A DNA stretch of 64,000 bases from Candidatus Daviesbacteria bacterium (GTDB lineage Bacteria; Patescibacteriota; Microgenomatia; Daviesbacterales; UBA10151), in contig JAQTPP010000001.1 in assembly GCA_028712705.1 (NCBI GenBank), forward strand, positions 81,521-145,520, given 5' to 3'. Positions 997-38,102 of this stretch are shown here, piece after piece; the first letter of the stretch is position 1; every line of letters starts with the position of its first letter. The translations under genes and the position numbers were made by a program. The notes beneath the pieces were generated by a model that saw nothing but the letters and a program-made list of their open reading frames with translations, was not told the origin of the DNA and made no database searches.

Positions 997-2718
997 ATGA
1001 AGTGGAAAATAGCCCCCAGGAAATCTGATAATTTAGTCGAGCAACTTTTAATCAACCGTGGTATTAAAACCGAAAAAGAAAAAGAGCAATTTTTCCATCC
1101 TAAAATTTCCGACTTTGCTAGTGATTTACAAATTCCCGGTATCAAAAGGGCCAATAAAAGAATTTTACAAGCAATCGAAAGAGGTGAGTTAATAATAGTT
1201 TATGGTGATTATGATGCGGATGGAATATGCGCCGCGGCTGTTTTATACAAAGGCTTAACTTCAATCGGAGCAAAAGTGCTGCCTTACATTCCACACAGAG
1301 AAAAAGAAGGGTATGGGATATCAAATATAGGACTTCAGTCTGTAAAGAATTCCGGTGCTGCAGTAGTGGTGACGGTTGATAATGGAATTGCGGCAGCGGA
1401 TCAGGCAATATTCGCCAAGAGCTTAGGTTTAGATTTAATAATTACGGACCACCATATGCCCGCCGAGCGGAAAAATAAACTTTTATGGCCGGATGCATAT
1501 GCAATAATTCATTCAACTAAGATGTGTGGAGCGGCAGTTGCCTGGTGTTTAATTAGGGACTTGATTAAAAAAGAATTGAGCAATGAGCTTTTGCAGTTTG
1601 TGGCAATTGCCACAATTTGTGATCTTTTGCCGCTTTTAGGTTTAGGCAGGGCGTTTGTGTCAGAAGGACTGAAGGTTTTGAATAAGGACCTGCTTCGCTC
1701 GCGCTCTGAAGATAGTATAGCGCTCGCTCGCAGAACCTTGCCTTCGCCTAGCGGCGAACGTAAAACAACAAACCTAGGATTACAGATTCTTATTGAGGAA
1801 AGTGGAATTAAAGGACCTATTGGATCATATGAAATAGGTTATATAATCGGTCCACGGTTAAATGCTATGGGCAGGTTAGAACATGCCATTGATTCGCTGC
1901 GGTTACTTTGTACAAAAGATCCGGTTAAAGCAAAAAGATTGGCAAAACTTTTAGCTGATACAAATGTCACTCGTCAAAAAATGACCATGGAAGCGCTGGA
2001 GCAGGCAAAATTATTGATTGATAAACAAAAAAAGATTCATGTTATCTTTAGCAAAGATTGGTCTGCCGGAATTATTGGTTTAGTAGCCGGCAGGATTTGC
2101 GAGGAATACTCGCGTCCGGTAATTGCCATATCTGTTGGTGAGGAGATTTCTAAAGGTTCTGCCCGGTCTATTGACGGGATAAATATTATTGAGCTGATCA
2201 GGAAACATTCCGACATTTTAATTGATGCGGGAGGACATCCGGGCGCAGCCGGTTTTTCTCTTTTAAGCAAACATATTGAAGTTTTTAAAAAAAGGCTAGA
2301 GGAGATTATACTAGTACTTCCGGAGGAGAAAAAAGTTTTGGAAATTGATGCTGAAGTTATTGGTAAACAGTTAAATAAAACTTTAATTCATGAGTTACAA
2401 AGATTCGAGCCTTTTGGACTGGGCAACAGAAGGCCTGTTCTTGTAACCAAAAATGTGCAGATTTCTGATATTAGGACAGTAGGGGACGGGAAACATTTAA
2501 AATTTAAGGTCTCTCCCTCTGTCATCCTGAGCGGAGCGCAGCGAAGCGAAGGATCTAATGCGATTGATGCTATTGCCTTTGGAATGGGAGATTGGGTAAA
2601 TCTCTTAAAATCCGGCCAGGTACTAAACTTGGTATATAATTTAGAGTTGGATACTTATAATGGTAATGATAAAGTGCAATTAAAAGTTAAAGATATAGGT
2701 GTTAATCCTTCGGCGTAA
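997..2718 (+). CDS. recJ: Single-stranded-DNA-specific exonuclease RecJ
   Basis: 573 aa with DHH family motifs (IIVYGDYDADGICAAAV, ITDHHMP) and a DHHA1-like C-terminal region. Confidence 0.85.
   Translation: MKWKIAPRKSDNLVEQLLINRGIKTEKEKEQFFHPKISDFASDLQIPGIKRANKRILQAIERGELIIVYGDYDADGICAAAVLYKGLTSIGAKVLPYIPHREKEGYGISNIGLQSVKNSGAAVVVTVDNGIAAADQAIFAKSLGLDLIITDHHMPAERKNKLLWPDAYAIIHSTKMCGAAVAWCLIRDLIKKELSNELLQFVAIATICDLLPLLGLGRAFVSEGLKVLNKDLLRSRSEDSIALARRTLPSPSGERKTTNLGLQILIEESGIKGPIGSYEIGYIIGPRLNAMGRLEHAIDSLRLLCTKDPVKAKRLAKLLADTNVTRQKMTMEALEQAKLLIDKQKKIHVIFSKDWSAGIIGLVAGRICEEYSRPVIAISVGEEISKGSARSIDGINIIELIRKHSDILIDAGGHPGAAGFSLLSKHIEVFKKRLEEIILVLPEEKKVLEIDAEVIGKQLNKTLIHELQRFEPFGLGNRRPVLVTKNVQISDIRTVGDGKHLKFKVSPSVILSGAQRSEGSNAIDAIAFGMGDWVNLLKSGQVLNLVYNLELDTYNGNDKVQLKVKDIGVNPSA
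2521..2558. repeat. GTCATYCTGAG-family element (left half) inserted in-frame in recJ (encodes VILSGAQRSEGSN)
   Basis: gtcatcctgagcggagcgcagcgaagcgaaggatctaa shares the gtcattctgag ... cgaagaatctaa architecture with the elements at 15846, 25871 and 38006. Confidence 0.6.
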
Positions 2719-2943
2719 TTATGTTGTTATAACCCACGCTCTGCCTATCCAGAATTCTGGGTCTTTAGTTCTATCAAAACCTATTATCCTAAAAATTTTA
2801 TCTGCAGGATCTCTAAATCGTCCATTACCAATATAAATTCCTTCTGGTGAAACTGGTACGCTAACAGTTTTAAACTTTTCGCCTGGTTTAAGAGTTATGG
2901 CTGTTGGATTATTAAATAATTCTACTGCTTCAATATTGGGCAT
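2719..2943 (-). CDS. Hypothetical small protein (74 aa)
   Basis: ORF with a hairpin-GGAGGTTTCTTTATGGAAAAAAT-ATG leader that closely resembles the pheA leader. No recognisable domain. Confidence 0.4.
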   Translation of the reverse strand: MPNIEAVELFNNPTAITLKPGEKFKTVSVPVSPEGIYIGNGRFRDPADKIFRIIGFDRTKDPEFWIGRAWVITT

Positions 2944-2957
2944 ATTTTTTCCATAAA

Positions 2958-2992
2958 GAAACCTCCCGTTCGGGAGGTTTAATTTCTTTTTT
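2958..2992 (+). terminator. Intrinsic terminator-like hairpin (aaacctcccg ttcg ggaggttt) plus T-run downstream of recJ; it also forms part of the leader of the minus-strand small ORF
   Basis: Perfect 9-bp stem with a 4-nt loop followed by tttctttttt. Confidence 0.5.
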
Positions 2993-3010
2993 AGATTTTA
3001 ATTAAAACCT

Positions 3011-3059
3011 AAAAAGACCTCCCAAAGAGCGCTCCGGCAAGGAGCACCAAAAGGAGGCC
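3011..3059 (-). terminator. Intrinsic terminator for pheA (GGCCTCC...GGAGGTC hairpin followed by TTTTT on the minus strand)
   Basis: Inverted repeat gacctcc/ggaggcc with an A-run on the plus strand at 3011-3015, immediately 3' of pheA. Confidence 0.45.
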
Positions 3060-3165
3060 TAATAAGACTTCAATTCTTTTTAAATTTAAACTCAAACTTT
3101 TCGACATGATGATTATTATGCTAATAGCAGTCTCGTGATTTGTCAATAAGTGAGTAAACTACTTT

Positions 3166-4098
3166 TCATTGACCATTGATTGTGCCCGGATCTCTAGCAC
3201 CTGCTGGCAACTCGGCTTTTCTGTATGAACCCAGTATTCTAAGTGAGGAACAGTAAGTAGTTTCTAGATCATTTATACCTTGTTTGACCGTATCATTTTC
3301 AATATGCCCATCTATTGTAACCCAGAAAGCGTATTGTCTCATGATTCCGGTAGGTCGTGAATCTATTTTCGTTAAATTTATGTCGTAAGAAGCTAAAACC
3401 GTAAGGCATCTTGCTAACATTCCCGGACGATTGCTTTCGGGAACGACGAAGACGAGAGCAGTACTATCTTGACCGGTAGGTTTAGTCTCGCCTCTTCCCA
3501 GCATTAAGAAACGAGTAGAATTGCCTTTCACGTCGCCTATATCTTCTGCAAGGATAGGTACATTGTATATTTGCGCAGCTCTTCTGCCAGCTATTGCTGC
3601 AATTTGTTTATTGTTTCTTGCAAGTTCAACTGCTGCCGTAGTGCTGGAGGACGGCTCTTGTTTTGCTTGGGGATAATTATTTAAAAGATAAGTCCTGCAT
3701 TGAGCTAAAGCTTGAGGATGGGAATGAATTTCGCTTATTTCAAATCCTGGCCATCCTATTAGCATATGCTGAATACCTAATATTGTTTCCCCAAGTATAG
3801 TGATACGTCTTGTATGGTTTAGTTCTCTTAAAACCTCTACGACATCTCCTTCGATTGCATTCTCCACCGGAACGACCCCAATGTCATAACCGCCTGCTTC
3901 TACAGCTTGTACTACTGTTGCATTGTAAGGCAAAAAATCTGCATCCATTCCAGCTAAATATCTGCTCAATAATTCATATCTGGCTGCTTCCGTGTATGTT
4001 CCTTCAGGGCCTAAACAAGCTACTCTAGGTTTGGTTCTGCCTTGAGTAAGCTCGATCTTTACCGGATAATTATTTATTAATAATTCGATCTTATTCAT
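3166..4098 (-). CDS. pheA: Prephenate dehydratase (PDT domain plus C-terminal ACT domain)
   Basis: 310 aa. The N-terminal PDT domain and the C-terminal ACT regulatory domain (ALVFVVPESNRPGMLARCLTVLASYDINLTKIDSRP) are recognisable. Confidence 0.8.
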   Translation of the reverse strand: MNKIELLINNYPVKIELTQGRTKPRVACLGPEGTYTEAARYELLSRYLAGMDADFLPYNATVVQAVEAGGYDIGVVPVENAIEGDVVEVLRELNHTRRITILGETILGIQHMLIGWPGFEISEIHSHPQALAQCRTYLLNNYPQAKQEPSSSTTAAVELARNNKQIAAIAGRRAAQIYNVPILAEDIGDVKGNSTRFLMLGRGETKPTGQDSTALVFVVPESNRPGMLARCLTVLASYDINLTKIDSRPTGIMRQYAFWVTIDGHIENDTVKQGINDLETTYCSSLRILGSYRKAELPAGARDPGTINGQ

Positions 4099-4301
4099 AT
4101 ATTTTTTCCACTAAAAAACCTCCGCTTTTTAAACTGCGAAGGTTAGTAACTAAAGTTGATTTTTCTTAAGCAAAACCAACCTCCGCTTAAGCGAAGGTAA
4201 AGAAGAACAAATTAATTCTTCCTACTGGTTTTTGCATGAGCTTAATTTAACAAATATTTTTGATCTTGTCAACATGTACTTCCTGCTGTTATGATGCATT
4301 C

Positions 4302-5687
4302 ATGCAGAGTCGCACTTTAATTTTAGACTGTATTAGTAAAATAGAAGATGAAGTTAAAATTTGTGGTTGGGTGCAGGTAGTAAGAGATCACGGGAAGATT
4401 CTATTTTTAGATGTTTTGGATAGATCTGGAATCATTCAGGTTGTAGTATCTCCAGACAGTGTCCACCTCGAAGGAGTCAAAGCCCACCTTCGAGGTGAAG
4501 AGTTGCAGGTGCAACGCTACCTGGAAGGTGGATTGCATGCAATACATCCGCAAGATGTAGTTTGTATAACGGGAAAAGTAAATAAACGTCCGGAAAACCT
4601 TATAAACAAAAATATCCCAACAGGCGAGATTGAAATCTCAGCAAAAGAAATTGAAGTTTTATCTAAAGCGCGGGAGTTGCCTTTTGACATGGGCGGTAAA
4701 GATTTGGATTTGCAGCTTCCGACTTTGCTTGATTTTCGCTCCCTTACTTTACGCCACCCAAAAGTCAAAGCCATTTTTAAAGTTCAAGAAAGTTTATTAG
4801 AGGGATTTAGAAAAGCTGCCAAAGATTTGGGATGTACTGAAATTGTAGTGCCGACGATTGTGGCCGGAGCAACAGAAGGCGGTGCGGAAGTTTTTAGAAT
4901 AGACTATTTTGAACACAAAGCCTACCTTTCTCAAAGCCCCCAACTTTACAAACAAATGCTGGTTCCGGTATACGAGCGAGTTTTTGCCATAGCCAAGGCT
5001 TACCGGGCTGAGCCATCAGTGACGACCAGGCATTTGACTGAAAGCACTCAAATGGATGTTGAGATTGGTTTTGTGGAATTTGAAGAGTTACTGGATATTT
5101 TGGAGAGTGTAGCGATTAAGATGTTAAAAATTGCTGAAGAAGAATGTAAAGAGATTTTATCCGAATTTGGAGTGGAGAAAATTGCTTTCGGCAAAATTCC
5201 CAGGCTTACTTTAAGGGAAGCGCAAGATGTAATCTTAAAAGAATTTGGGCGCGATAACAGGAAGGAAAAGGATTTAACTCCGCAAGACGAAGTTGACTTA
5301 TGCAAATGGGCAAAGAAAAGTCACGGTAGTGATTTTGTGACGGTGACACATTTTCCTACTGCTGCCAAACCATTTTACACAATGCCGGATCCGAAAGATC
5401 CGGAATATTCTTTAAGTTATGATCTACTATTTAGGGGGGTAGAAATTATGAGCGGCAGTCAGAGGATTAATGATTATCAACAGTTGGTTGATTCAATCAA
5501 ATCAAGAGGTATGGATCCAAAATCTTTTGAGATGTATTTGCAGGCTTTTAAATTTGGTATGCCTCCGGAAGGTGGATTCTCCTTTGGGTTGGAAAGAATT
5601 ACCATGCATGTTTTGAATTTAGCTAATGTTAGAGAAGCCAGTCTTTTCCCAAGAGATATGGAAAGAGTAGACACCAGGTTGAGATGA
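4302..5687 (+). CDS. aspS: Aspartate--tRNA ligase, archaeal/AspRS2-like class IIb (AsnRS not excluded). The ORF track starts at 4260; the start at 4302 fits an OB-fold N-terminus better.
   Basis: Class II motifs FRIDYFEHKAYLSQSPQLYKQ and GGFSFGLERITM. The C-terminal LFPRDMERV resembles archaeal-type AspRS. Length is about 460 aa with no GAD insertion. Confidence 0.7.
   Translation: MQSRTLILDCISKIEDEVKICGWVQVVRDHGKILFLDVLDRSGIIQVVVSPDSVHLEGVKAHLRGEELQVQRYLEGGLHAIHPQDVVCITGKVNKRPENLINKNIPTGEIEISAKEIEVLSKARELPFDMGGKDLDLQLPTLLDFRSLTLRHPKVKAIFKVQESLLEGFRKAAKDLGCTEIVVPTIVAGATEGGAEVFRIDYFEHKAYLSQSPQLYKQMLVPVYERVFAIAKAYRAEPSVTTRHLTESTQMDVEIGFVEFEELLDILESVAIKMLKIAEEECKEILSEFGVEKIAFGKIPRLTLREAQDVILKEFGRDNRKEKDLTPQDEVDLCKWAKKSHGSDFVTVTHFPTAAKPFYTMPDPKDPEYSLSYDLLFRGVEIMSGSQRINDYQQLVDSIKSRGMDPKSFEMYLQAFKFGMPPEGGFSFGLERITMHVLNLANVREASLFPRDMERVDTRLR
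4465..4497. repeat. 33-nt hairpin element CACCTCGAAGG-AGTCAAAGCCCA-CCTTCGAGGTG inserted in-frame in aspS (encodes VHLEGVKAHLRGE)
   Basis: Perfect 11-bp inverted repeat with a 12-nt loop. A near-identical copy lies at 30305-30338 and a diverged reverse-orientation copy at 27498-27530. Confidence 0.75.
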
Positions 5688-6616
5688 AATACTATTTATA
5701 TTCCGCCGGTTTGATTATTCTGGCAATAATTATCACAACAGCAATCCCATTCGTGGTAGAGCTTAGTGAAAATGAATTAATCAGTTTGGCTATCCCTTTG
5801 AATAATTCAAGCGTTGCCGGTATTCAGAAATATAATATTCCACCGGTTGTTGGCAGTTTACCGGTTCCAATCGTTTCTGCCCGCGCAGTTTTTATTGAGG
5901 ATTTGGCGACCGATACAATTCTTTACCAGAAAGATGCTAATACTCCGTTTCCAATTGCATCTACTACGAAGATTATGACAGCTCTTGTCGGAGTAGAATA
6001 TTTTAAACAAAATTCCATACTAACCATTGGAAGCAGCGCAAATATCCCCGGTTCCCGGGTAGGTTTAGTTTCCGGAGAAAATCTTAGCTTTAGATCGCTG
6101 CTTTACGGTATGCTGTTAAATTCCGGTAATGATGCTGCTTTTGCTTTGGCAGAAAATTATCCGGGTGGAGTTTTGAGTTTTATATCGGCAATGAATAAAA
6201 AAGTTTTAGAGCTAAATTTGCGCAATACTCATTTCGACAACCCTGCAGGCTTTGATAGCCCAAATCATTACTCTTCCGCAGCAGATCTTGCTAAAATTAC
6301 AAAAGAAGCCTTAAAAAATTCCCAACTGGCAAGAATTTTTGCGACTAAAGAAACGAATATAGTTTCTTTAGATAAAAAATATTCCCATCAGTTATTTAAT
6401 CTTAATAAATTACTAACCCAGATTAATGGGGTTTTAGGAATAAAAACCGGTACTACTGATCAAGCTAAAGAGAACTTAGTGACGTTGATTGAAAGGGACT
6501 GGCATCGGGTTTTGATAATAATTCTCGGAAGCAATGACCGGTTTGGCGAAACTACGAGATTAATAGACTGGACTTATACGAATATTATTTGGCCGGAGAC
6601 TGAAACTCTTCGCTGA
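5684..6616 (+). CDS. D-alanyl-D-alanine carboxypeptidase (S11 family, PBP5/6-like), N-terminal TM anchor
   Basis: SxxK motif (ASTTKIMT), SxN motif (LLNSGNDAA) and KTG motif (IKTGTT). ATGA start/stop overlap with aspS. Confidence 0.8.
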   Translation: MKYYLYSAGLIILAIIITTAIPFVVELSENELISLAIPLNNSSVAGIQKYNIPPVVGSLPVPIVSARAVFIEDLATDTILYQKDANTPFPIASTTKIMTALVGVEYFKQNSILTIGSSANIPGSRVGLVSGENLSFRSLLYGMLLNSGNDAAFALAENYPGGVLSFISAMNKKVLELNLRNTHFDNPAGFDSPNHYSSAADLAKITKEALKNSQLARIFATKETNIVSLDKKYSHQLFNLNKLLTQINGVLGIKTGTTDQAKENLVTLIERDWHRVLIIILGSNDRFGETTRLIDWTYTNIIWPETETLR

Positions 6617-7664: not shown

Positions 7665-7732
7665 AAGTTCAATACGATCGCATACTGTTATTATACAAGA
7701 ATGGAAGATATAATAATCTGTGAACTCAAATT

Positions 7733-9482: not shown

Positions 9483-9690
9483 GTAAGTATTGCGGGATCT
9501 GCTAATGGTAGGCAGCCAGGCTCTGAACCTGGTAATCATGGTCCGAGTCCATGTCCCGCAGCAAAAGCTCGGTTCACTGTGCTCTTCCGCAGCCCAAAGA
9601 GTGAAGGAGGAAATCCTAGTCTTGCACGGCTGCACACTTTAGGTATCTGTACCCAATATAACTTTAGACTGATGCAAAATTGATGCTTCT
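9483..9690 (+). ncRNA. Candidate structured non-coding RNA or 5' leader (unclassified)
   Basis: About 200 nt of intergenic sequence with no ORF and a higher GC than its surroundings. It contains multiple hairpins (tgcgggat...gtcccgca enclosing ccaggctctgaacctgg and catggtccgagtccatg). It matches no tmRNA, RNase P, SRP or 6S core motif I could recognise. Confidence 0.3.
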
Positions 9691-12001: not shown

Positions 12002-12579
12002 AAAGTTCCAACATAAAAGCAATTTTTATTCCAGGTTACCATGGTGCAGGTGAGGACATTTTATCTGCTAAGCATCAAATGTGGTTTGCCTGGTTGAAAG
12101 AGGAGTTGGAGAAGCTAGGGATAGAGGTAATTGCTAAGGATTATCCTGATGCTTATCTTTGCAGGGCAAATTATTGGCTGCCTTTTATTAAGAAACTTGG
12201 AGCTGATGAGAACACTATTTTAGTTGGTCACTCAACAGGTGCAATTGCAGCTATGAGGTTTGCTGAAGAAAATAAAATTTTAGGGTCAGTTTTGGTTGGA
12301 AGTTATTATACTGATTTAGGTGATTCGGAAGAGAAAGCAAGCGGTTATTTTGACAATCCATGGCAATGGGAAAAGATAAAAAACAATCAAAAATGGATAA
12401 TCCAATTTCACTCAACAGATGATCCCTGGATTTCAAATGATGAAGCACACGTGGTTCATGAAATGCTTACCAGCGAACTCCATGAGTTCCATAACCAAGG
12501 ACATTTTGGAGCCGATAGACCAAAAATGGAATTCCCCGAGCTTTTAGAAGCTATTAAACAAAAATTAAATATAATTTAG
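11998..12579 (+). CDS. Alpha/beta hydrolase, YdeN/RBBP9-like serine hydrolase
   Basis: G-H-S-T-G nucleophile elbow (VGHSTGA). About 190 aa, typical of the Ser_hydrolase/DUF1234 family. Confidence 0.55.
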   Translation: MKSSNIKAIFIPGYHGAGEDILSAKHQMWFAWLKEELEKLGIEVIAKDYPDAYLCRANYWLPFIKKLGADENTILVGHSTGAIAAMRFAEENKILGSVLVGSYYTDLGDSEEKASGYFDNPWQWEKIKNNQKWIIQFHSTDDPWISNDEAHVVHEMLTSELHEFHNQGHFGADRPKMEFPELLEAIKQKLNII

Positions 12580-12595
12580 GTATTCTAATGTAAGC

Positions 12596-12850
12596 ATGTA
12601 TACGGTTTATATCCTAAGAACATCTTTAAATACTTTATACATCGGTCAAACAAACAATCTAGAAAAAAGATTAAAAGAACATCAAAAGAAAAGCTCCAAA
12701 TCAGCTAAATATATTCGCTACTTTAAATCTTCGCAGCTGGTTTATTCGGAAAAGTATGGGACTAGAATTGAAGCCATGAGTAGAGAATACGAGTTGAAAC
12801 AGTGGCCAAAAGCTAAAAAAGAAGCTTTAATTGCAGGGGAGATGAGATAA
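12596..12850 (+). CDS. GIY-YIG nuclease domain protein (UPF0213/YhbQ-like)
   Basis: YTVYILRTSLNTLYIGQTNNLEKRLKEH is a canonical GIY-YIG signature. Confidence 0.7.
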   Translation: MYTVYILRTSLNTLYIGQTNNLEKRLKEHQKKSSKSAKYIRYFKSSQLVYSEKYGTRIEAMSREYELKQWPKAKKEALIAGEMR

Positions 12851-15837: not shown

Positions 15838-15845
15838 ATTGTTTC

Positions 15846-15927
15846 TGTCATTCTGAGTGATTAGCGAAGAATCTAATTATTTAATCTTTAGATCCTTCGG
15901 TCGTTACACTCCCTCAGGATGACAATG
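15846..15927. repeat. Nested-palindrome MITE-like element (GTCATTCTGAGTG...CACTCCCTCAGGATGAC) between ribD and ribA
   Basis: Outer inverted repeat gtcattctgagtg / cactccctcaggatgac. Inner inverted repeat cgaagaatctaa / ttagatccttcg. Related copies at 2521, 25871 and 38006. Confidence 0.75.
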
Positions 15928-25870: not shown

Positions 25871-25899
25871 TTTTTCTCTGTCATTCTGAAGCATAGCGT
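25871..25899. repeat. Half-copy of the GTCATTCTGAG-family element upstream of the second dacA-like gene
   Basis: gtcattctgaagcatagcgtaagaatctg. Confidence 0.5.
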
Positions 25900-25922
25900 A
25901 AGAATCTGTTATCATTACTGTC

Positions 25923-27274: not shown

Positions 27275-30211
27275 ACCAAAAGAGGCTAAGGTTATTATGC
27301 CTCCGGAAACTATCAGTAAACCGCCAAGAAATTCGTTTGCCGAATTTTTGGGGATTAAATTTTTCTGTTCTTCCAGGATTTTGCTGATATTGATTTGATC
27401 GGAAATATGGTTGGGGTTTTGGAAGGTAACTCCTAAGACGTCCGGCGTAGATAGGATGGAGTTTGATGATTGATTTGTGGTTTCGCTCCTAGAGCTTACC
27501 TCGGAGGAGTCAGAGCCCATCTCCGAGGTGCTAGCTGTACTGGAGGTAGAATTTGATGAGGTACCAGAGGAGATGGTTGAAGTGGGAGTTTGTGTAGGAA
27601 TTGGGGTGGGAGTAGGAGACGGGGGTATAGCAATTTCTATAGTGATGGATTGGGGGATTTCTTCGTTGCCCAGGTTATCAATTGATTTGATTTGTAAAGT
27701 GGTTTTACCCGGAGTAGAAATAATAAACGGATTTGAGTAAATATGTACAGTTTGCCCGTTATCCAAACTATATTCAATTCTTAGTATTCCTGATTCAGTA
27801 TCGTTACCGGTTAAAGTTACAGTAACTGGTTCAGTATAAACCCCTGAAAAATCTTTTGTTCCGGAGATTTGAATGTTGGTAACGGGCGGCGTTTGATCTA
27901 ATGCTGCAGAACCGGTAATTTCGCTGGTAGGACTAATGGGGACATTTATTTCGCTTGACGAATCAGGATAAAAATTAAGCGAGGGAGAAGTATCTAAAGC
28001 AGGATCAAGAGTAAATTCTACTTTGCCAACTTGAGGAACAGCAATGTCTTTATAGATTGTGGTTTTGGATATTTTATCTTGTTTATAGGTCCTTTTTTTG
28101 AGGTTAGTAGTTTTAGAGTTATTGGACGGATTTTTACGAGTTGTTTTTACTTTTACTTTTGCAGCTTTCTTTTTAACAAAAGCATGTTTAGTGTTTCCGG
28201 AAGTAATGCAAGAGACATCCGGAATATTTTCTTCTATTTCTCCTTTGTCATTTAAACCGCAGTGGCGGTTTTGATCATCATATAAATCTAATTCTCCGTC
28301 ATCCAAAGAAATTTGCTCGCCTTCCAAAACAATTCTTTCGTCTTTTACTTCCACAGGGAAAGAATTGTCATCATTTAAAATTGCTTTGACGGTTTGCATA
28401 GCTATGCCGCTGGAACTGACCAGGTCAGAGTGTTTTTGTTCTACATAATAGATTTTGATAGCACCGGAAATATCTAAAGAATCACTTTTTAAAGAGGCGC
28501 TATAAAGCGGAACAGTGCCGTCGCCATTGATAAAAATTTCATCTATTTTAGGGATTATATTAACAGGCCAGGTGATCCACCAAGTTTCATGAATTTGTCC
28601 TAAAGTTGGTTGGCTAGAACCAATGACTTCATAGATTTTAGTCCCATTAGTTTGATTTAATATCGGATCCAGCGAGCTATGGAGTGTTTCTCCAAATACA
28701 AAAACAATCATATTGTAAGCTAGGTTAGAAATGAGAGTTTTAGTTTGATCGTAATCTAGAGAACCAGTAATCTTATTATTATCTATATCGCGGTCATCTT
28801 TAAATGGATAAGGCTGATTCTGACTAGAATTATTATAGAAATCAAAGTAAGTTTTTGATGGTAATAATTGGAAAGCAGTGGGTAGATTCTGAAAAATGTC
28901 TTTCACTTCTGATGCAGGCACTCCTAGATAAAAATCACCCAATATTTGTCTACCTAGTGGTTTGCCATACATAAGAGCTTTAGTAGTATCTACTGCCCCT
29001 AAGTGAGGAACTCCCAGTTCTATCAATTTATTAACCTTAGCAGCTTTACTAGCATCTGAAATATAATACCTAGCTACTAGGCCTCCCATAGAATGGACTA
29101 CCAGATTGACTTGAGATTGACCGGAAGCTGTTTTAGCAGTTTCAATGAGATTATCTAAACTGTCTTTAGTGTTTCTGACATCTTTTCTCCAGTCATATGG
29201 AAAGGTAAAGAAATTTTTACCTTTCTCGTACCCCATTCCGGTAAAAAACGAATCAATATCAGAATATCCAAAAGAAGTTAAGTCTCCTGTTAAACTTAAA
29301 GCAGCCTCTGGGGTTTGCCCATCGGTTTTTAACCGTAAAATATCAAAATAATCATCATTTCCCAGTTCCGCAGCCTTATCCTGATTTACCCAAATCTTTT
29401 CATTGCTGGAATAAGCATGAGAATATGTCCCGCCATGGCCGTCTTGAGCAGACCAAATAATATCCTGAGATGCCTTTATCTCTGACCCGCCAATTCCCGG
29501 AATAAAAATTACCGGTAATCTTGGAGGTGGAGGTGGAGGTGAAGTGTTACTTAAGATAAAATATAAATCATCTTTAGTGCTAGAAAATACATTGCAACCA
29601 GAATTTGAAGTTTGAGAATTCCAGATATATTGAGAAGCGTTACAGAATCCGTTATCAAAAGCATATCTTAAGCCTCCGCCGCTAAATAAATCAGATCCCC
29701 CATGTCCTCCCGGACCATAAGCAGCGCTTGTAAATAATATTTTACCGCTGCCCGCGTTACCATTATTAGCATTGGTTATTAATATTAAGTACCGGTGTCC
29801 AGGGATGAAATTATAATTCCGGCAGGAAAAATCGATGGTAACGTCTTCGTATCCGATTGGGACGCCAGTTGTTGTAAAAGTTAAGCCATCTAATGGGTCA
29901 TTATGATTAGTTCCAGGACAGCCAATTATATATGAATTATTATTCTTGTCGTAGATACGGGTGTTTCTGGTGGTAAAATCAAATTGATTTAGATTGGTTC
30001 GGGAAGTACTGACTCTGAACGTGAAGGAGGATGCGGTGCCGGATAAATTATTTCCTAATTCTTGTAAAGCCCCCCAAACAGTTAGTGGATCGCTCCAAGC
30101 TTGAGTTTGTTCTGCTACAGAAACAGCAGAAATATTAGAAGTTGAGATCACAAAAAGTCCTACTACAAAAGTAAGCCGTATATATTGACGAAATGGCAGT
30201 TTTATATTCAC
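27239..30211 (-). CDS. Large secreted, C-terminally membrane-anchored surface protein with a lipase/alpha-beta-hydrolase domain (990 aa)
   Basis: Signal peptide, beta-rich N-domain and a PPPPPP linker. Lipase nucleophile elbow VVHSMGGLVARYY following PVIFIPGIGGSE. Lys-rich segment, Ig-like region, Pro/Thr/Ser-rich stalk and a C-terminal TM plus KKIPK. Confidence 0.7.
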   Translation of the reverse strand: MNIKLPFRQYIRLTFVVGLFVISTSNISAVSVAEQTQAWSDPLTVWGALQELGNNLSGTASSFTFRVSTSRTNLNQFDFTTRNTRIYDKNNNSYIIGCPGTNHNDPLDGLTFTTTGVPIGYEDVTIDFSCRNYNFIPGHRYLILITNANNGNAGSGKILFTSAAYGPGGHGGSDLFSGGGLRYAFDNGFCNASQYIWNSQTSNSGCNVFSSTKDDLYFILSNTSPPPPPPRLPVIFIPGIGGSEIKASQDIIWSAQDGHGGTYSHAYSSNEKIWVNQDKAAELGNDDYFDILRLKTDGQTPEAALSLTGDLTSFGYSDIDSFFTGMGYEKGKNFFTFPYDWRKDVRNTKDSLDNLIETAKTASGQSQVNLVVHSMGGLVARYYISDASKAAKVNKLIELGVPHLGAVDTTKALMYGKPLGRQILGDFYLGVPASEVKDIFQNLPTAFQLLPSKTYFDFYNNSSQNQPYPFKDDRDIDNNKITGSLDYDQTKTLISNLAYNMIVFVFGETLHSSLDPILNQTNGTKIYEVIGSSQPTLGQIHETWWITWPVNIIPKIDEIFINGDGTVPLYSASLKSDSLDISGAIKIYYVEQKHSDLVSSSGIAMQTVKAILNDDNSFPVEVKDERIVLEGEQISLDDGELDLYDDQNRHCGLNDKGEIEENIPDVSCITSGNTKHAFVKKKAAKVKVKTTRKNPSNNSKTTNLKKRTYKQDKISKTTIYKDIAVPQVGKVEFTLDPALDTSPSLNFYPDSSSEINVPISPTSEITGSAALDQTPPVTNIQISGTKDFSGVYTEPVTVTLTGNDTESGILRIEYSLDNGQTVHIYSNPFIISTPGKTTLQIKSIDNLGNEEIPQSITIEIAIPPSPTPTPIPTQTPTSTISSGTSSNSTSSTASTSEMGSDSSEVSSRSETTNQSSNSILSTPDVLGVTFQNPNHISDQINISKILEEQKNLIPKNSANEFLGGLLIVSGGIITLASFGLLATFLKKIPK
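27498..27530. repeat. Reverse-orientation diverged copy of the 33-nt CACCTCG...CGAGGTG hairpin element, in-frame in the lipase gene stalk region (encodes TSEMGSDSSEVSS)
   Basis: The reverse complement reads CACCTCGGAGATGGGCTCTGACTCCTCCGAGGTA. Confidence 0.6.
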
Positions 30212-30304: not shown

Positions 30305-30338
30305 CACCTCGAAGGAGTCAAAGCCCACCTTCGAGGTG
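30305..30338. repeat. Intergenic copy of the 33-nt hairpin element CACCTCGAAGGAGTCAAAGCCCACCTTCGAGGTG, preceded by a duplicated TTCACCTCG
   Basis: Identical to the aspS-internal copy. Located 14 nt upstream of the cyclophilin ATG. Confidence 0.75.
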
Positions 30339-30351
30339 TATAATTGGGCAG

Positions 30352-31050: not shown

Positions 31051-31114
31051 CTCTATACAATATATTGTATATTGACACTTTAAGGTACCAATATGTTATG
31101 TTATACTGGGTTTC

Positions 31115-31555: not shown

Positions 31556-34161
31556 AAAAAACAAAAACTACACTGCAAGTTGTTTCTGTCAGGGAACATA
31601 AACCTAATGGTATGGATCCGTTTTCGCCAAGGCTTCAACGGGCAGGTCGTAATGGTCGGAGTTTCGAAACAAGATTTATCCCGCGCTATAAACTTATACC
31701 GGAGTTGCCGAGCGGTTTACCTGAACCGGCATTCTCCGAGAGCGCAAATAAAATTTTGAATGAAAGATATCTTCTCAAGAGTAGTAATTTGGAAATAGCT
31801 GAAACTGTTGCGGAGAGGTTTTGGCATATTGCTTTTGATATTGCCTCCGGTGATATTGATTTTGGCGCAACGATAAAAAATGTGACAGAAATGGCAAAAA
31901 GTTTCTATACCATGATGGTGCGCCAGGAATTTTTGCCTAATTCTCCGACAATAATGAATGCCGGAAAACAAAACGGGTTGCAGTATTCTGCCTGTTTTGT
32001 TTTGCCGATTGGGGATTCGCTGCCGGAAATTTTTGATACCATAAAATATGCGGCTTTGATTCACCAAACAGGCGGGGGAACGGGTTTTGCTTTTTCCAGG
32101 CTTCGCCCGGCAGGGAGCATTGTCAATACCACAGGTGGTGTGGCCTCCGGACCGGTTTCGTTTTTGCGGGTATTTAATGCTGCTACAGAATCTATTAAGC
32201 AGGGCGGTACGAGACGTGGGGCGAATATGGGAATTTTGCGGGTTGACCACCCGGATATTCTGGAATTTATCAGATGCAAGGCAGAATTGGATGATTTAAA
32301 TAAATCGGTATATGAAGGCATTGCTCAGTTTTTGCCGGATTCCTCTGCCAGAGATTTTGTCAAGACTTTGCTTTTGGATAAACAGATTGCCAATTTTAAT
32401 ATCTCTGTAGCGCTGACAAATAAATTTATGGAAGCGCTGGCAAAAGGCAAAGATTATGATTTGGTGAATCCCGGCAGCGGAGAGGTAGTTGGTAAATTAA
32501 ACTCAAGAGAGGTTTTTGATGAGATTGTGGAACGGGCTTGGAAAACAGGCGACCCTGGACTTATATTTATTGACAGGATTAATGATTCACCTTCCAACCC
32601 GGTGCCATCTTTAGAAACTATTGAATCTACAAATCCATGCGGGGAGCAACCATTAGCTCCTTGGGACGCATGTAATTTAGGATCCATAAATTTGGGTAAA
32701 TTTGTCCGTCAGCTGGCGGATGGGGGCTTGGATGTGGATTGGGAAAGATTGGAACAAACTACCAGACTGGCGGTACATTTTCTGGATAATGTGGTTCAGA
32801 CAAACCCTTTTACCTTAAAACAAATTTATGATGAAGTGCACCAAAACAGAAGAATAGGTCTTGGGGTAATGGGTTTTGCCGACATGTTGTTTAAGCTAAA
32901 GATTTCATATAACTCTGTGGAAGCGCTGGATTTGGCCGGCAGACTAATGAAGTTTATTAATGAAGTAGGACACGGCGCTTCGCAAGATCTGGCAGCGGAA
33001 AGAGGCTCTTTTCCAAACTGGACCCTATCAATTTATGCCGATAAACGCTCTTCGGCTTTCAAAAACAGGCCGGAATCCAGTGCTTATGTTGGCGGAAGAA
33101 AAATCAGAAATTCAACAATCACAACCATTGCCCCAACAGGCACGATTTCTATTATTGGGGATTGTTCCTCCGGAATTGAGCCGGTATTTGCGCTTAGTTT
33201 TATCCACAAAGCCAAAGCTAAAGGTGATGAGTACAGGACATTAACCATCGCCAATCAAACTTTTGCCGATATTGCCAAAGAACAGGGTTTTTGGAGCGAA
33301 GACCTGGCAGCTAAGGTACTTGAGCATGGGTCTGTTAGAAATATCCCTGATGTGCCGGAAGACTGGCAGAAAGTTTTTGTGACGGCCCAGGAGATTGAGC
33401 CAGCGTGGCATGTTAAAATGCAGGCAGCTTTCCAGGCATATACGGATAATGGGGTTTCTAAAACAATAAACCTTCCCGGTATCGCAACGCGTGATGATGT
33501 AAGGACTGCATACATGATGGCTTATGAGACAGGTTGTAACGGGATAACAATTTATAGGGACGGCTCCAAAAGCACTCAGGTTTTAAATGTTTCTTCCAGT
33601 TTGAATGAACAAGTCGAGTCTGAATCGGCTCCCATTGCCGAGAGGCCGATGATCCTCCGGGGTAGGACTTACAAAGTTTCAACGCCTGTGGGGGAGGCTT
33701 TTATTACTGTTAATAGGGATGCAAGTGGTCAACCTTTTGAAGTTTTTGTAACTGTCGGGAGAGCCGGTATGCATACTATGGCAGATGCGGAAGCTATGGG
33801 ACGACTGGTTTCCTTATCGCTTCGTTTGGCAAGAGGAACAAAGGAGACAGATCCAAAAGCAGTAGCATTGAAAATTGTCGGGCAACTGCGGGGGATTGGC
33901 GGAGCGTCATCAGTAGGTTTTGGAAAAAATAGGGTGCAGAGTCTGGCAGATGCAATTGCCAAAGTTTTGGCAGAAGATTTAGCGGAGATTGGAACGGAGG
34001 AGACTGTGGAAACTTTACCGCAGTCAAATACAGGTACAGATGACGTGATGCTGGCTCTATCACACAACCAAGCAGATCTTTGTCCGGAATGCGGCTCAGT
34101 TTCTTTTGTACTGGAAGAAGGCTGCAAAAAATGTCACTCCTGCGGTTACTCCATGTGTTAA
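31552..34161 (+). CDS. nrdJ: Ribonucleoside reductase, class II (adenosylcobalamin-dependent)
   Basis: 869 aa. NPCGEQPL active-site loop and a C-terminal CPECG...CKKCHSCG zinc ribbon typical of class II RNR. ATGA overlap with nrdR. Confidence 0.8.
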   Translation: MKKTKTTLQVVSVREHKPNGMDPFSPRLQRAGRNGRSFETRFIPRYKLIPELPSGLPEPAFSESANKILNERYLLKSSNLEIAETVAERFWHIAFDIASGDIDFGATIKNVTEMAKSFYTMMVRQEFLPNSPTIMNAGKQNGLQYSACFVLPIGDSLPEIFDTIKYAALIHQTGGGTGFAFSRLRPAGSIVNTTGGVASGPVSFLRVFNAATESIKQGGTRRGANMGILRVDHPDILEFIRCKAELDDLNKSVYEGIAQFLPDSSARDFVKTLLLDKQIANFNISVALTNKFMEALAKGKDYDLVNPGSGEVVGKLNSREVFDEIVERAWKTGDPGLIFIDRINDSPSNPVPSLETIESTNPCGEQPLAPWDACNLGSINLGKFVRQLADGGLDVDWERLEQTTRLAVHFLDNVVQTNPFTLKQIYDEVHQNRRIGLGVMGFADMLFKLKISYNSVEALDLAGRLMKFINEVGHGASQDLAAERGSFPNWTLSIYADKRSSAFKNRPESSAYVGGRKIRNSTITTIAPTGTISIIGDCSSGIEPVFALSFIHKAKAKGDEYRTLTIANQTFADIAKEQGFWSEDLAAKVLEHGSVRNIPDVPEDWQKVFVTAQEIEPAWHVKMQAAFQAYTDNGVSKTINLPGIATRDDVRTAYMMAYETGCNGITIYRDGSKSTQVLNVSSSLNEQVESESAPIAERPMILRGRTYKVSTPVGEAFITVNRDASGQPFEVFVTVGRAGMHTMADAEAMGRLVSLSLRLARGTKETDPKAVALKIVGQLRGIGGASSVGFGKNRVQSLADAIAKVLAEDLAEIGTEETVETLPQSNTGTDDVMLALSHNQADLCPECGSVSFVLEEGCKKCHSCGYSMC

Positions 34162-34164
34162 GCC

Positions 34165-34961
34165 TTCCGCCCCAAGGGTACAAAAATATCTAAATATCCG
34201 CAGGTGTCAATACAAATCCACCCCAAGGGTGGACACGGCTGTCAGTTTAGTCTTCAACATCTAATAGTTGGTGTTTTATTAATTCCAATTTCTGGGCATA
34301 ATCAACTTGGTCTAGAACAAATTGCTGATAGTGTTTGGATGATTTGAAAAGACATAGGATAGCTTCTTTATTACAAATTCCGTCGGTATCACTCTCAATG
34401 TATTCCCTATAAGAAGACCAGCGATATTGATTTAGATCTTTTACCAAAAATGAAGCAATTGGATTTAAATGGATGTAACGGGAAGCATGGCTTAATTGCT
34501 CGTCAGATTCTATAAGTACTGCCTTGAATTCTCCTTGTAGCAGAGGACCAACACGGTTATATTTTACATTGTAATATTTAGTATAACTGTTGCTTAGTTT
34601 GCTAATAAATTCTGTAATTCCACCATCTTTTAACTGCTTTATTAGGAAATGAAAATGATTTGACATGAGGCAATAACAGATTACTTCAACTATTTTTTTA
34701 CTTGAATCAGGTTTGAAAATTGAACCAGCGAGAAATTTAGAAAGTTTTGGCTTGGGTCCTGCAAGCTGGTAGTAACACATTGTTTTAATGAGTCGTGAAT
34801 AATCCCAACTTTTTTCAAAAACACTTCTTTTTTCTACACCACGATTGTAAATGTGGTAATATTGCCCGTTTACAAATGGAAAAATTCTAGAAGGCATCTG
34901 AAGCTAGCATAGCTTAAATATCCGCAGGTGTCAATACCAATCCACCCCAAGGGTGGACATT
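34165..34961 (-). mobile_element. RayT-like HUH transposase unit flanked by about 45-bp direct repeats carrying a TCCACCC-CAA-GGGTGGA hairpin
   Basis: Repeats at 34191-34235 and 34917-34961 (aaatatccgcaggtgtcaatacaaatccaccccaagggtggaca). A degenerate extra copy lies at 34167-34182. The unit is inserted between nrdJ and the cobalamin adenosyltransferase gene. Confidence 0.7.
34247..34897 (-). CDS. REP-associated tyrosine transposase-like protein (COG1943 / IS200-like Y1 HUH)
   Basis: YYHIYNRGVEKRSVF, HUH motif CYCLMSNHFHFLI, GPLLQGEFKAVLIESDEQLSHASRYIHLNP and the catalytic-Tyr region YRWSSY. Confidence 0.8.
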   Translation of the reverse strand: MPSRIFPFVNGQYYHIYNRGVEKRSVFEKSWDYSRLIKTMCYYQLAGPKPKLSKFLAGSIFKPDSSKKIVEVICYCLMSNHFHFLIKQLKDGGITEFISKLSNSYTKYYNVKYNRVGPLLQGEFKAVLIESDEQLSHASRYIHLNPIASFLVKDLNQYRWSSYREYIESDTDGICNKEAILCLFKSSKHYQQFVLDQVDYAQKLELIKHQLLDVED

Positions 34962-34993
34962 CTATTATAGACATGGTTTGTTAAAATCAGCTC

Positions 34994-35527
34994 ATGAATA
35001 AAGAAAAAGGTTTGGTTATTTTATATACCGGTGAGGGGAAAGGGAAAACCACAGCTGCCTTGGGTTTGGTACTCCGGGCCGTGGGTCATAAGAAAAAGTG
35101 CTTGGTAGTTCAGTTTGGCAAAGCTTCTTTCACTGGTGAACTGGAAGCAGTAAAAAAACTTAAAACTGATGTTAAATTTATCCAGGGCGGTAAAGGGTTT
35201 GTTAAAATTTTAGGGGACAAGCTGCCCTTAAAAGAACATAAAAAAGCTGCAAAGAAAACATTTGATATATTATATAAGGAAATTATTAGTGGTAAATGGA
35301 ATGTAGCGGTGGCAGATGAAATAATTGGAGCAGTCTCATCCGGACTTCTTCCCGAGAGCTTAGTTGTGAAATTAATTACAGATAAACCTGAGAAGCTGGA
35401 TTTAGTATTAACCGGTCACCATGCGTCAAAGAAATTAATTGGGGTGGTTGATTTAGTAACCGAAATGCGGAGAGTAAAACATCCTTACCAAAAAGGAATT
35501 CTGGCAAAAAAGGGTATTGACTTTTAG
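34994..35527 (+). CDS. Cob(I)yrinic acid a,c-diamide / cob(I)alamin adenosyltransferase (CobA/CobO/BtuR family)
   Basis: GEGKGKTTAALGLVLRAVGHKKKCLVVQFGKASFTGE P-loop signature of PF02572. Confidence 0.8.
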   Translation: MNKEKGLVILYTGEGKGKTTAALGLVLRAVGHKKKCLVVQFGKASFTGELEAVKKLKTDVKFIQGGKGFVKILGDKLPLKEHKKAAKKTFDILYKEIISGKWNVAVADEIIGAVSSGLLPESLVVKLITDKPEKLDLVLTGHHASKKLIGVVDLVTEMRRVKHPYQKGILAKKGIDF

Positions 35528-35565
35528 CACTCATTGCACTAAACTGCTAATAGTTTTAAGAAAAT

Positions 35566-37998
35566 ATGGTTGATTTCATTAAATCGATTACGCCAACTTC
35601 AACAGAACCTTTAAAGTTGAAACCGACTATGCCGGTTGGACCGCTTCGTGATACGGTAATTTTTCCCGGCAACTCAGTCCCGATTATATCCGGCAGACCA
35701 AGGTCTAAGGCCGCGCTAGATGCAGTATGGGGTAGCGATAAATTGATAGTTTTTGTCACTCAAAAAAATTCCCGGATTGAAGACCCAACAGAAAAAGACC
35801 TGTATAAAGTTGGTACTGTTTGTCTGATAAGACGGGTAGTTAAAAATCCTGAAGGAGAATACACACTGCAGGCAGAAGGGCTTTCCAGGGTATACTTAAA
35901 AAGTTTTACCAAGATAGAGCCTTATTTAGAAGCGGAAATAGAAGAAATCCCCGAACTTTACGAAAAAAGCGAACAAACAGAAGCATTGGTTAGAACTGTT
36001 AGAGAACAAATGAAACGGTTTCTGGAGTTGGGCGGTAACCCATTTTTTGACCAAAGCAATTTCGCCAACTGGTCCCTTTTTACCTATAGCGATGATCCAA
36101 ATCAGTTGGTAAACTCGATAACCCAATCTATAGATTTTAAAACCATAGACAAACAACAGATCTTAGAAATGGTTTCTGCAGGAGAAAGGTTGCAACGGCT
36201 ATCCGAGCTTTTGGCAAAAGAGATAAGAATTCTGGAAATATCACAGAAAATTTCATCGCAAACTCAAGAGCGTGTTTCCAAAATGACCAAGGAAGCGATT
36301 CTGCGGGAACAGATGAAGAGCATTGAAGAAGAGCTGGGCGGGGCAGATACGGAGCATCAGGAAATTAAAGAATTTGAACTCAAAATCAAAAAGAGCGGCA
36401 TGCCGAAAGAGGTTTTGGAAAGGGCAAAGAAAGAACTGGGGAGGTTGGCAAAGATGTCTTCCTATAACCCGGAAGCAGGTTATATCAGAAATTATCTGGA
36501 ATGGTTGACAGATTTACCTTGGAAGCATAGTAAAAAAGGTAAAGTTGATTTGAAAAAAGCAGAAGAGATTTTAGAAGAGGATCATTACGGTTTAAAGAAA
36601 GTAAAAGAGCGTATTCTTGAGTATTTGGCCGTTTACAAGCTTGCAGGCAAAATGAGGGGACCGATCCTTTGTTTCGTCGGCCCGCCGGGTACAGGTAAAA
36701 CTTCCATCGGAAAATCTATTGCCAGAGCTTTGAGCCGGAAATTTATCAAAGTATCTCTGGGTGGAATACGCGATGAGGCGGAAATAAGAGGACACCGCAG
36801 AACTTATGTCGGCTCTATGCCAGGCAGGATTATCCAGGGAATAAAACAGGCCGGCACCACCAACCCGGTTTTTATGCTGGATGAGATTGATAAAATTGGG
36901 ACAGACTACAGAGGTGATCCTTCGGCAGCGCTTCTTGAGGCGCTTGATCCTGAACAAAACGAAGGCTTTTCCGATCATTATTTGGAAGTATCATACGATC
37001 TTTCCAATGTTATGTTTATTACAACTGCAAATATTTTGGACACAATTCCACCGGCACTTCGGGACAGGCTTGAAGTGATCAGATACCCGGGTTACACGGA
37101 AGATGAAAAGTTCCATATTGCCAAAAAATTCTTAATTCCCAAGCAAATGCAAAATCATGGGTTCAAAAAGGACCAGATCGAGTTTCAAGATGAAGCTATT
37201 TATTCAATTATTAGAGGTTACACAAGAGAGGCCGGAGTTAGAAATTTGGAAAGAGAAATTTCAGCGGTCCTAAGAAAGGTGGCAAGAAAAATAGCAGAAG
37301 GAAATGGTGAGGTGAAGAAATTTATAATCCTTTCTAAGGATATCCATAGTTTTCTGGGACCAATCAAATTCTTACCAATTTTGGCTGAAAAGATGGATGA
37401 AATCGGGATGGTTACCGGTCTTTCCGTGACAGAGGCCGGAGGAGAGATTTTGTTTATTGAAGTCACTTTAATGCCCGGAAAAGGCAATTTGCTTTTGACA
37501 GGGCAACTGGGGGATGTGATGAAAGAATCTGGTCAAGCAGCAATGTCTTATGTTAGGGCTCACTGGACTGATTTGGGATTGCCGGAGCGGTTTTTCCAAA
37601 AGGTTGATGTGCATGTTCATGTTCCGGAAGGAGCAATTCCAAAAGATGGCCCCTCGGCAGGGATAGCTCTTACAACTGCCATTGTTTCCGCATTCACAAA
37701 GATTCCGGTCCATAAAGATATAGCCATGACCGGTGAGGTTACGTTAAGAGGACGAGTTTTGGAAATAGGTGGATTCAAAGAAAAAGTTTTGGCAGCTCAC
37801 CGGGCCGGAGTAAAAGTTATAATTGCGCCGGCTGATAATGAAAAAGATTTGGAAGATATTCCGGATTATGTACAAAAGGATCTTAAATTTATCTTTGTCA
37901 AACATATGGATGATGTTTTAAGAGTTGCGCTGGTGAGACCTCCTCAACCAGCAACCAGAAAAAGAATCCCAATTTCTCCTCCGGCCTATTTAGCATAA
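35566..37998 (+). CDS. lon: ATP-dependent protease Lon
   Basis: Lon N-domain, AAA+ Walker A (GPPGTGKTS) and the protease Ser site ([20 protein letters not shown]). Confidence 0.9.
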
Positions 37999-38005
37999 AG
38001 TTTTT

Positions 38006-38102
38006 GTCATTCCGAGTGATTAGCGAGGAGTCCCGATTAAATCGGGATTGCCGCGTCGCGGAGTTTACACTGAGCGAAGTCGAAGCGCTCCTCGCAATGA
38101 CA
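38006..38102. repeat. Nested-palindrome MITE-like element (TTGTCATTCCGAG...CTCGCAATGACAA) between lon and hppA
   Basis: Outer inverted repeat ttgtcattccgagtgattagcgaggag / cgctcctcgcaatgacaa. Inner hairpin cccgattaaatcggg. Same family as 15846-15927. Confidence 0.7.

Follow-up and report, generated by a model that had tools for sequence, protein, structure and literature searches.

A family of short palindromic repeats was found in a 64,000-nt stretch of Candidatus Daviesbacteria DNA (hereafter the window; G+C content 38.8%), whose predicted RecJ, GTP cyclohydrolase II and H+-pyrophosphatase proteins have their top matches in metagenome-assembled genomes of Candidatus Daviesbacteria (Microgenomates, candidate phyla radiation or CPR). 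Eight oriented repeat units are spread over five loci as three tag-outward doublets and two single units (Table 1). Doublet A lies inside cca, which encodes the CCA-adding enzyme (Pfam PolyA_pol), doublet B lies at the ribA/ribD junction, and doublet C lies between the lon stop codon and the hppA promoter region. Of the single units, E is inside recJ and D is intergenic. The window also encodes a small GIY-YIG protein homologous to the Ssn endonucleases of Neisseria. A preliminary description, made from the sequence alone, had named the products of the genes flanking doublets B and C as RibD, GTP cyclohydrolase II, Lon and H+-pyrophosphatase, and these assignments hold.

Table 1. Repeat units, host genes and related features of the window
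Feature	Position	Strand	Description
cca	1-961	-	partial in window
Doublet A	458-535		in cca
Unit A-left (GTCATTGCGAAC…GCAATC)	458-485	+	stem TGC/GCA; left half of doublet A
Unit A-right (GTCATTCCGAGG…GGAATC)	502-535	-	stem TCC/GGA; right half of doublet A
recJ	997-2718		
Single unit E (GTCATCCTGAGCGGAGCGCAGCGAAGCGAAGGATC)	2521-2555	+	stem CCT/AGG; in frame in recJ
ssn homologue	12596-12850	+	single-domain GIY-YIG protein, 84 aa; Pfam GIY-YIG 1e-16
Doublet B	15847-15923		ribA/ribD junction
Unit B-left	15847-15873	+	stem TCT/AGA; left half of doublet B
Unit B-right	15891-15923	-	stem CCT/AGG; right half of doublet B
Single unit D (GTCATTCTGAAGCATAGCGTAAGAATC)	25880-25906	+	stem TCT/AGA; between YkuD transpeptidase and D-Ala-D-Ala carboxypeptidase genes
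Doublet C	38006-38101		lon/hppA
Unit C-left (GTCATTCCGAG…GGAGTC)	38006-38032	+	stem TCC/GGA, one mismatch
Unit C-right	38046-38101	-	stem TGC/GCA; carries 30-nt loop module
Palindrome CACCTCSGAGGTG, six copies	682-694, 709-721, 977-989, 4485-4497, 27518-27530, 30326-30338		second palindrome family

The motif GTCATTCYGAG, with up to one mismatch, matched the window seven times against 1.2 matches expected, and seven matches were reached in none of 100 shuffled sequences, so the dispersed, structured family proposed in the preliminary description is borne out. A relaxed hairpin expression without the GTC/ATC anchors gave 23 hits in the window and 21 in shuffled sequence; it was replaced by an anchored pattern and by a profile derived from the units, which recovers exactly the eight units with no other match at E < 1. 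All eight follow a common plan (T-GTC, AT NNN, GAG … loop … CGA, N'N'N' AT, C): the tag T-GTCAT opens every unit, the ends read …AT-C except in C-left, which ends …GT-C, and a cytosine stands directly behind the palindrome in each. Units are 25-60 nt in size, with five Watson-Crick pairs, of which A-T and T-A come first and the following three covary, and loops of about 10 to 45 nt. Four different stem triplets occur among them, the two sides being complementary apart from the single mismatch in C-left. A doublet consists of two inverted units with their GTC tags outside and 13-17 nt between them, and in all three doublets the stems of the two units differ (heterodimers). The copy coordinates first given were essentially right and have been refined to those of Table 1; unit D had been placed at 25871-25899. 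The original inventory of four copies had overlooked doublet A, a third full doublet, and its "half copies" are complete single units rather than halves of a longer element. The inner hairpin attributed to the full copies is present, as the product of two inverted units facing each other.

When folded as RNA, the doublets beat shuffled sequences on either strand (z -3.4 to -4.9), and two of them lie between genes of the same orientation. As REP (repetitive extragenic palindromic) sequences of other bacteria can stabilise mRNA (PMC3733652), the repeats might be functional RNA elements, such as terminators, mRNA stabilisers or riboswitch-like structures, selected in the transcript. This is very unlikely for four reasons. 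First, a scan of the whole window at the Rfam gathering threshold identified two tRNAs only, and at E ≤ 1 no Rfam match covered doublets B or C: two chance-level, sub-threshold matches fell outside doublet B and none in the region of doublet C. Second, there is no run of T behind either of these doublets. Third, copies occur in coding sequence and doublets hold units on both strands. Fourth, Neisseria SsnA does not bind RNA (PMC11893778). The repeats may still influence expression in a secondary way.

The closest available relative, GCA_028715175.1 (contig JAQUSJ010000001.1), is syntenic with window positions ~1-24,000; nucleotide identity to the window is 91-95% for most of the region compared and about 78% in part of cca. 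Its contig stops matching before 25880 at a synteny break, which leaves the site of unit D uncovered. The syntenic part of the window (~24 kb) holds five units, compared with one, the recJ unit, in ~37 kb of the relative. Doublet A is missing from this relative at ~92% nucleotide identity. The ribA-ribD gap measures 96 nt in the window and 7, 10 and 0 nt in three relatives (L325, L327 and L328), all of which have an empty site; doublet B together with about 7 nt (15838-15845) forms a clean insertion with precise boundaries between the ribA stop codon and the ribD start codon. Alignment of filled and empty ribA/ribD alleles revealed no flanking direct repeat and hence no target-site duplication, a feature that the preliminary description had suggested looking for. 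One side of this insertion has a 7-nt T/C-rich leader 5' of its tag, as would fit cleavage upstream of the hairpin. The proposed effect of doublet B on ribD coupling is plausible. The lon-hppA spacer is 177 nt in the window and 73 nt in L334 (GCA_041643055.1), the surplus being doublet C; empty sites are clean at cca and ribA/ribD, while lon/hppA aligned less cleanly. Because the doublets are absent from these sites in relatives and the closest relative is unit-poor, they behave as DNA recently acquired in the window lineage, although either spreading or precise loss would fit. A contig of the same strain from the Logan assemblies, L335, which carries hppA, starts inside doublet C at about window position 38056; short-read assemblies therefore break at such repeats.

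Three of the eight window units are intragenic, and all three are in frame. Doublet A is 78 nt, or 26 codons, and is translated as VIPRERSDRGNLHNPLKIASLVVRND within a loop of the CCA-adding enzyme that is short in some orthologues and holds other insert remnants in others. Unit E is translated as VILSGAQRSEGS in the OB domain of RecJ, where this peptide is flanked by two conserved blocks, GKHLK and IDAIAFGMG. The solved RecJ structure 8y30 has a 13-residue gap precisely at this position, and the segment is absent from about half of 28 aligned Daviesbacteria RecJ orthologues. The in-frame recJ copy of the preliminary description is therefore confirmed as an insertion relative to many orthologues and to the solved structure. 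Many Daviesbacteria carry a unit at this site. Among five other genomes compared, the closest relative (L002) shares the 35-nt unit without a difference, L329 carries one of 49 nt with the stem TCT/AGA that is translated in a different frame, L330 and L331 have units of 46 and 59 nt, respectively, and L332 is empty. Every filled allele has TCYCCYTCT before the unit and TAAT after it, and runs GTCAT…ATC with complementary stems. As filled alleles of different species have these flanks in common, the comparison argues for one old insertion, the interior of which would have been rewritten later, including a compensatory stem change, with a multiple-of-three length retained.

The recJ segment could alternatively be an ordinary conserved or low-complexity loop that resembles the repeat by coincidence, and VILSGAQRSEGS is indeed conserved in several orthologues. 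Such a coincidence is scarcely credible: the units at the same site in other species use other frames and other loops (peptides SSCHSEHICFAQCKLREES and SRHPDPERAKRVEGEGS) while all keeping GTCAT…ATC and complementary stems, the segment is missing from many orthologues and from the solved RecJ, and elsewhere this DNA motif lies between genes.

A 30-nt loop module (CTTCGACTTCGCTCAGKGTAAACTCCGCG) occurs in the recJ units of L331 (2701-2759) and L329 (6430-6478), in window unit C-right and at L274 1164-1198. Because this module sits in the loops of otherwise different units, it suggests sequence exchange or nested insertion between copies. The cca loop of L331 encodes TSFAQGKLD where the window has doublet A, and, judged from the peptide, this may be a relic of the same module. 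In one RecJ orthologue (P0007; alignment A1, columns ~555-585) the flanks VSP…PNS are kept and the hairpin-encoded part is gone, which, judged from the protein, may be the footprint of an excision or deletion.

The family extends well beyond this lineage. The pattern GTCATYSYGAG-N(4-30)-CGARSRATC, which does not demand complementarity, matched at least 120 viral contigs (G+C 0.30-0.68) and at least 120 species-representative genome contigs. The unit type occurs in more than 15 phyla, and the genome matches listed include Chloroflexota, Acidobacteriota, Nitrospirota, Planctomycetota, Bacteroidota, Verrucomicrobiota, Proteobacteria, Firmicutes, Omnitrophota and Patescibacteria, the last represented by Saccharibacteria, Paceibacterota and Gracilibacteria. 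The preliminary description would have been refuted by a lack of further copies genome-wide together with a RecJ segment conserved in homologues without the repeat elsewhere; as copies lie far beyond this genome, it is not refuted in this way. Stem triplets were complementary in 159 of the 174 viral and 185 of the 189 genome matches listed, against 1/8 (12.5%) by chance. The commonest unit among the matches listed is the 25-mer GTCATTCTGAGCGAAGCGAAGAATC, in whose stem nine positions can be drawn by treating G·A/A·G as pairs. Of 112 adjacent plus/minus pairs among the matches listed, 98 were no more than 150 nt apart, with a median spacer of 22 nt and the tag-outward form dominant, and 80 of 127 doublets were heterodimers. 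The base before GTCA in the wider sample was T in 626 and C in 126 of 792 units. At four loci (L253, L266, L296 and L172), units form long arrays of alternating (+) and (-) orientation with a regular period, beside ssn homologues or, as with seven units in 900 nt of a Dehalococcoidia chromosome, alone; these arrays have the look of bacterial interspersed mosaic element (BIME) clusters.

To identify associated genes, all open reading frames within 400 nt of units were clustered over about 2 Mb of fetched loci. Apart from phage proteins, the sole recurrent neighbour family was a GIY-YIG protein of ~90 aa. The other clusters comprised phage structural proteins, which are expected because many of the loci are viral contigs, and one four-member cluster from phage contigs that encodes an uncharacterised 120-aa protein. 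The GIY-YIG gene lay between a (+) unit and a (-) unit in 4/4 cases, with examples from Saccharibacteria, Gracilibacteria and Cyclobacteriaceae. A relaxed search for open reading frames bracketed by inverted units returned mostly chance pairs, and only the GIY-YIG cases were both tight and recurrent. For an unbiased check, protein alignment alone served to pick 80 metagenome loci, which were examined with a unit detector tolerating one mismatch. Units were present in 78 of these loci. A (+) unit lay within 200 nt upstream of the GIY-YIG gene in 56 of 76 loci, a (-) unit lay within 250 nt downstream in 54 of 73, and both sides were occupied in 43 of 69; several loci contained doublet arrays. 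The unit-bracketed protein is related to N. gonorrhoeae SsnA (46% identity, E-value: 4e-16; hhalign probability 99.6%), itself the product of a single gene with eight literal copies of its hairpin target, NTS, around it. The window homologue is also related to this SsnA (36% identity, E-value: 3e-12), and it retains the residues aligned with Y6, Y17 and E64 of N. meningitidis SsnA.

Miniature inverted-repeat transposable elements, or MITEs, are bounded by target-site duplications and derive from insertion sequence (IS) elements that encode a transposase. The preliminary description had called the window repeats MITE-like, and part of this stands: they are dispersed and apparently mobile, and the doublets, of 78-96 nt with inverted ends (TGTCAT…ATGACA), are absent from relatives' sites. 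In size, inverted ends and presence/absence polymorphism they are comparable to Correia/NEMIS, RUP and Nezha elements. A classical MITE, that is, a deletion derivative of an IS element moved in trans by a DDE transposase, is nevertheless highly unlikely. There is no direct repeat at the clean ribA/ribD insertion, no transposase family was recurrent near the units in the clustering of about 2 Mb, single units are frequent and each is a hairpin with a covarying stem, and the gene found between inverted units encodes a GIY-YIG nuclease instead.

The SsnA protein of Neisseria, which has 94 aa and a single GIY-YIG domain, binds the hairpin NTS (CGTCATTCCCGCGMAVGCGGGAATCYRG) as single-stranded DNA (ssDNA) only, not as RNA, and cuts a few nucleotides upstream of it (Chenal et al. 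Nat Commun 2025, PMC11893778). Binding depends critically on the C behind the palindrome, and cutting on the three nucleotides in front of that C (PMC11893778). Ssn-related motifs (SRM) accompany ssnA homologues in many phyla, being nearby in 71% and on both sides in 42%, and the authors compare the arrangement NTS–ssnA–NTS to an insertion sequence and to REP sequences with their RAYT (REP-associated tyrosine transposase) genes (PMC11893778). In N. meningitidis, SsnA reduces transformation by NTS-bearing DNA (PMC11893778). The window units share with NTS and SRM the form of an oriented hairpin that has (C/T)GTCAT as its head and a C after the palindrome (CGTCATTCCCGCG…GCGGGAATC in NTS, TGTCATTCTGAGCG…CGAAGAATC in the window), and both kinds of motif flank single-domain GIY-YIG genes of ~90 aa on two sides (42% in PMC11893778, 43/69 here). 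The associated proteins are homologous and both are widely spread among phyla. The two differ in that the units here have five Watson-Crick pairs, a GAG/CGA junction and loops of up to about 45 nt, whereas NTS and SRM have an 8-bp GC-rich stem, and in that 2% of NTS are intragenic (PMC11893778), compared with three of the eight window units. The main text of that paper contains no mention of CPR or Patescibacteria, of doublets as miniature elements or of in-frame copies.

A second body of work describes similar repeats. Di Nocera et al. (BMC Genomics 2013, PMC3733652) define a superfamily of CGTC-tagged REPs, the tag often being TGTC, that includes Neisseria dRS3 and Rickettsia RPE-4 and RPE-6. 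In their account the stems open with complementary A-T pairs, tag-outward (HH) dimers predominate, heterodimers occur, and units or dimers that lie in frame inside genes, of which many serve replication and repair, encode 20-30 aa; no association with a tyrosine transposase and no dedicated enzyme are reported (PMC3733652). The window units agree with this in that all read TGTC-AT…AT-C (…GT-C in C-left), HH dimers occupy three of the five loci, the cca doublet encodes 26 aa and recJ holds a unit. They differ in that the described stems are 8-9 bp with loops of 4-5 nt (PMC3733652), while the paired stem in the window is shorter and the loops are about 10-45 nt. The survey did not cover CPR genomes, and the GAG…CGA subtype could be one of its four families. 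The window repeats fit both descriptions, that of SRM/NTS with Ssn and that of CGTC/TGTC-tagged REPs.

The general architecture is also that of REP, BIME and REPIN elements mobilised by RAYT, an IS200/IS605-type Y1 HUH transposase: oriented-tag hairpins, tag-outward inverted doublets, clustering, an enzyme gene that is flanked and present in one copy, and a hairpin that is likely or proposed to serve as a single-strand substrate (PMC3116915, PMC3733652). A RAYT is nonetheless an unlikely agent for the window repeats. Their tag is TGTC or CGTC rather than GTAG, the enzyme gene that they flank encodes a GIY-YIG protein rather than an HUH Y1 transposase, and the survey of CGTC repeats recorded no association with tyrosine transposases (PMC3733652). 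The neighbour clustering contained no such family, although no Y1_Tnp search aimed at all loci was made.

Rickettsia palindromic elements (RPE), reportedly introduced by Ogata et al. in 2000, offer a parallel for the intragenic copies. By description they are palindromic repeats that lie in frame within genes that stay functional, adding a peptide at tolerant sites; RPE-1 differs in being longer (about 100-150 bp) and specific to Rickettsia. Searching the literature for the literal repeat strings brought up nothing but primers and plasmid sequences.

Our preferred reading, to which we assign a probability of roughly 0.78, identifies the window repeats as Ssn-related hairpin motifs, TGTC-tagged and REP-like, and the doublets as derivatives of a unit–ssn–unit cassette that lack the gene. 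What is described here is a new lineage (CPR) and a sequence subtype of an already known system. By homology with the characterised Neisseria and Wolbachia systems, a single-stranded unit would be the binding site of the small monomeric GIY-YIG endonuclease Ssn, which would cut a few nucleotides 5' of the tag, on the strand that bears it. Unit(+) – ssn gene – unit(-) would be the ancestral or autonomous arrangement, and the gene-less, tag-outward doublets would be miniature derivatives recently inserted at three sites. Within genes, copies would persist in tolerant surface loops when their length is a multiple of three and their frame is free of stops, adding an extra peptide as in cca and recJ, because selection would spare only such copies. 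The ssDNA-specific binding and cleavage in this scheme come from the literature; the anatomy, covariation, insertion polymorphisms, age and remodelling of the recJ copy, association of units with Ssn genes and the window ssn homologue come from the present analysis. We infer that the Daviesbacteria Ssn of the window acts on the window units, and that Ssn, as opposed to another enzyme or recombination, spreads them.

Several observations weigh against this reading. The published SRM string, HGTCWYN(0-2)YYVSBRHN(0-5)WNVSBRGN(0-2)RNCYNB, matches the literal NTS and the Neisseria gonorrhoeae locus; it matches none of the eight window units, nothing else in the whole window and none of the 248 units beside Ssn homologues in the 80 protein-picked loci. 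The window units are thus a sequence subclass outside the published SRM pattern. Single units folded as ssDNA show no gain over shuffled sequences (z -0.9 to +0.9), so that the case for a single-unit hairpin rests on covariation. At the three polymorphic sites neither a target-site duplication nor a target motif was seen, just the T/C-rich 5' leader. The profile finds no intact units flanking the window ssn gene, and this gene has a syntenic orthologue in L325, a relative with few units; its co-occurrence with the repeats in the window is therefore weak evidence of an active partner. Finally, we know of no experiment on any organism in which Ssn has driven the mobilisation of repeats, its demonstrated role in Neisseria being restriction of incoming single-stranded DNA. 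Just 5' of the window ssn start, at 12579-12598, the sequence GGTATTCTAATGTAAGCATG loosely resembles a decayed unit head (GTCATTCTGAGCGAAGC); with low confidence, it may be what is left of a unit that once flanked the gene.

A bolder version of the Ssn reading can be held only tentatively, at odds somewhat short of even. It proposes that unit(+)–ssn–unit(-) is a mobile element in its own right whose mechanism is of a new class, with a ~90-aa GIY-YIG ssDNA endonuclease as the mobilising enzyme, that the doublets are its currently active miniatures in this lineage, and that the GAG…CGA subtype marks a specificity class that is large, spans more than 15 phyla and has gone unrecognised. The three doublet insertions are lineage-specific, and one of them is inside an essential gene. 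If true, this proposal would explain what spreads CGTC-tagged REPs and RPE-like in-frame insertions.

An unannotated repeat of an ultra-small CPR genome is in this way tied to a system with recently characterised biochemistry. The empty sites, clean at cca and ribA/ribD and less clean at lon/hppA, are natural evidence for miniature doublets that are still moving, and the recJ alleles indicate that hairpins can persist for a long time in essential genes with the interior rewritten and the reading frame retained. As the published SRM string misses an abundant subtype, surveys that use it undercount the family. In predicted proteomes, VILSGAQRSEGS or VIPRERSD marks repeat-derived peptides. If Ssn restricts incoming ssDNA as it does in Neisseria, the system could also matter for DNA uptake by CPR bacteria, which is inference only.

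Other elements were seen in the same DNA. At recJ positions 1687-1764 there is a 78-nt in-frame insert (DLLRSRSEDSIALARRTLPSPSGERK; 56% G+C) with a GAGCGCGAGCGAAG-like core. It is absent from 28/28 aligned RecJ orthologues, including one that is 93% identical, and does not align to the solved RecJ. Its reading as a decayed unit found no support: the unit profile misses it, and the fetched DNA contains no second copy.

The tRNA-Gln gene of the window (9491-9562) is uninterrupted. In the closest relative (GCA_028715175.1, L002 18448-18860), a gene for a 103-aa UPF0213-like GIY-YIG protein and a 70-nt palindrome are inserted in tRNA-Gln, the 5' part of the tRNA being duplicated. This insert represents another kind of GIY-YIG cassette in which the two genomes differ.

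The window also holds a second palindrome family, CACCTCSGAGGTG, with six hits where 0.03 would be expected. In cca, a 27-nt in-frame insert (~689-715) lies between two of the copies and is missing from the relative. Another copy, 8 nt upstream of the recJ start, includes the Shine-Dalgarno-like sequence GAGGTG and so could form an anti-Shine-Dalgarno/Shine-Dalgarno hairpin. A 40-nt paired form of CACCTCSGAGGTG also lies upstream of recJ in another species (L331 1220-1259).

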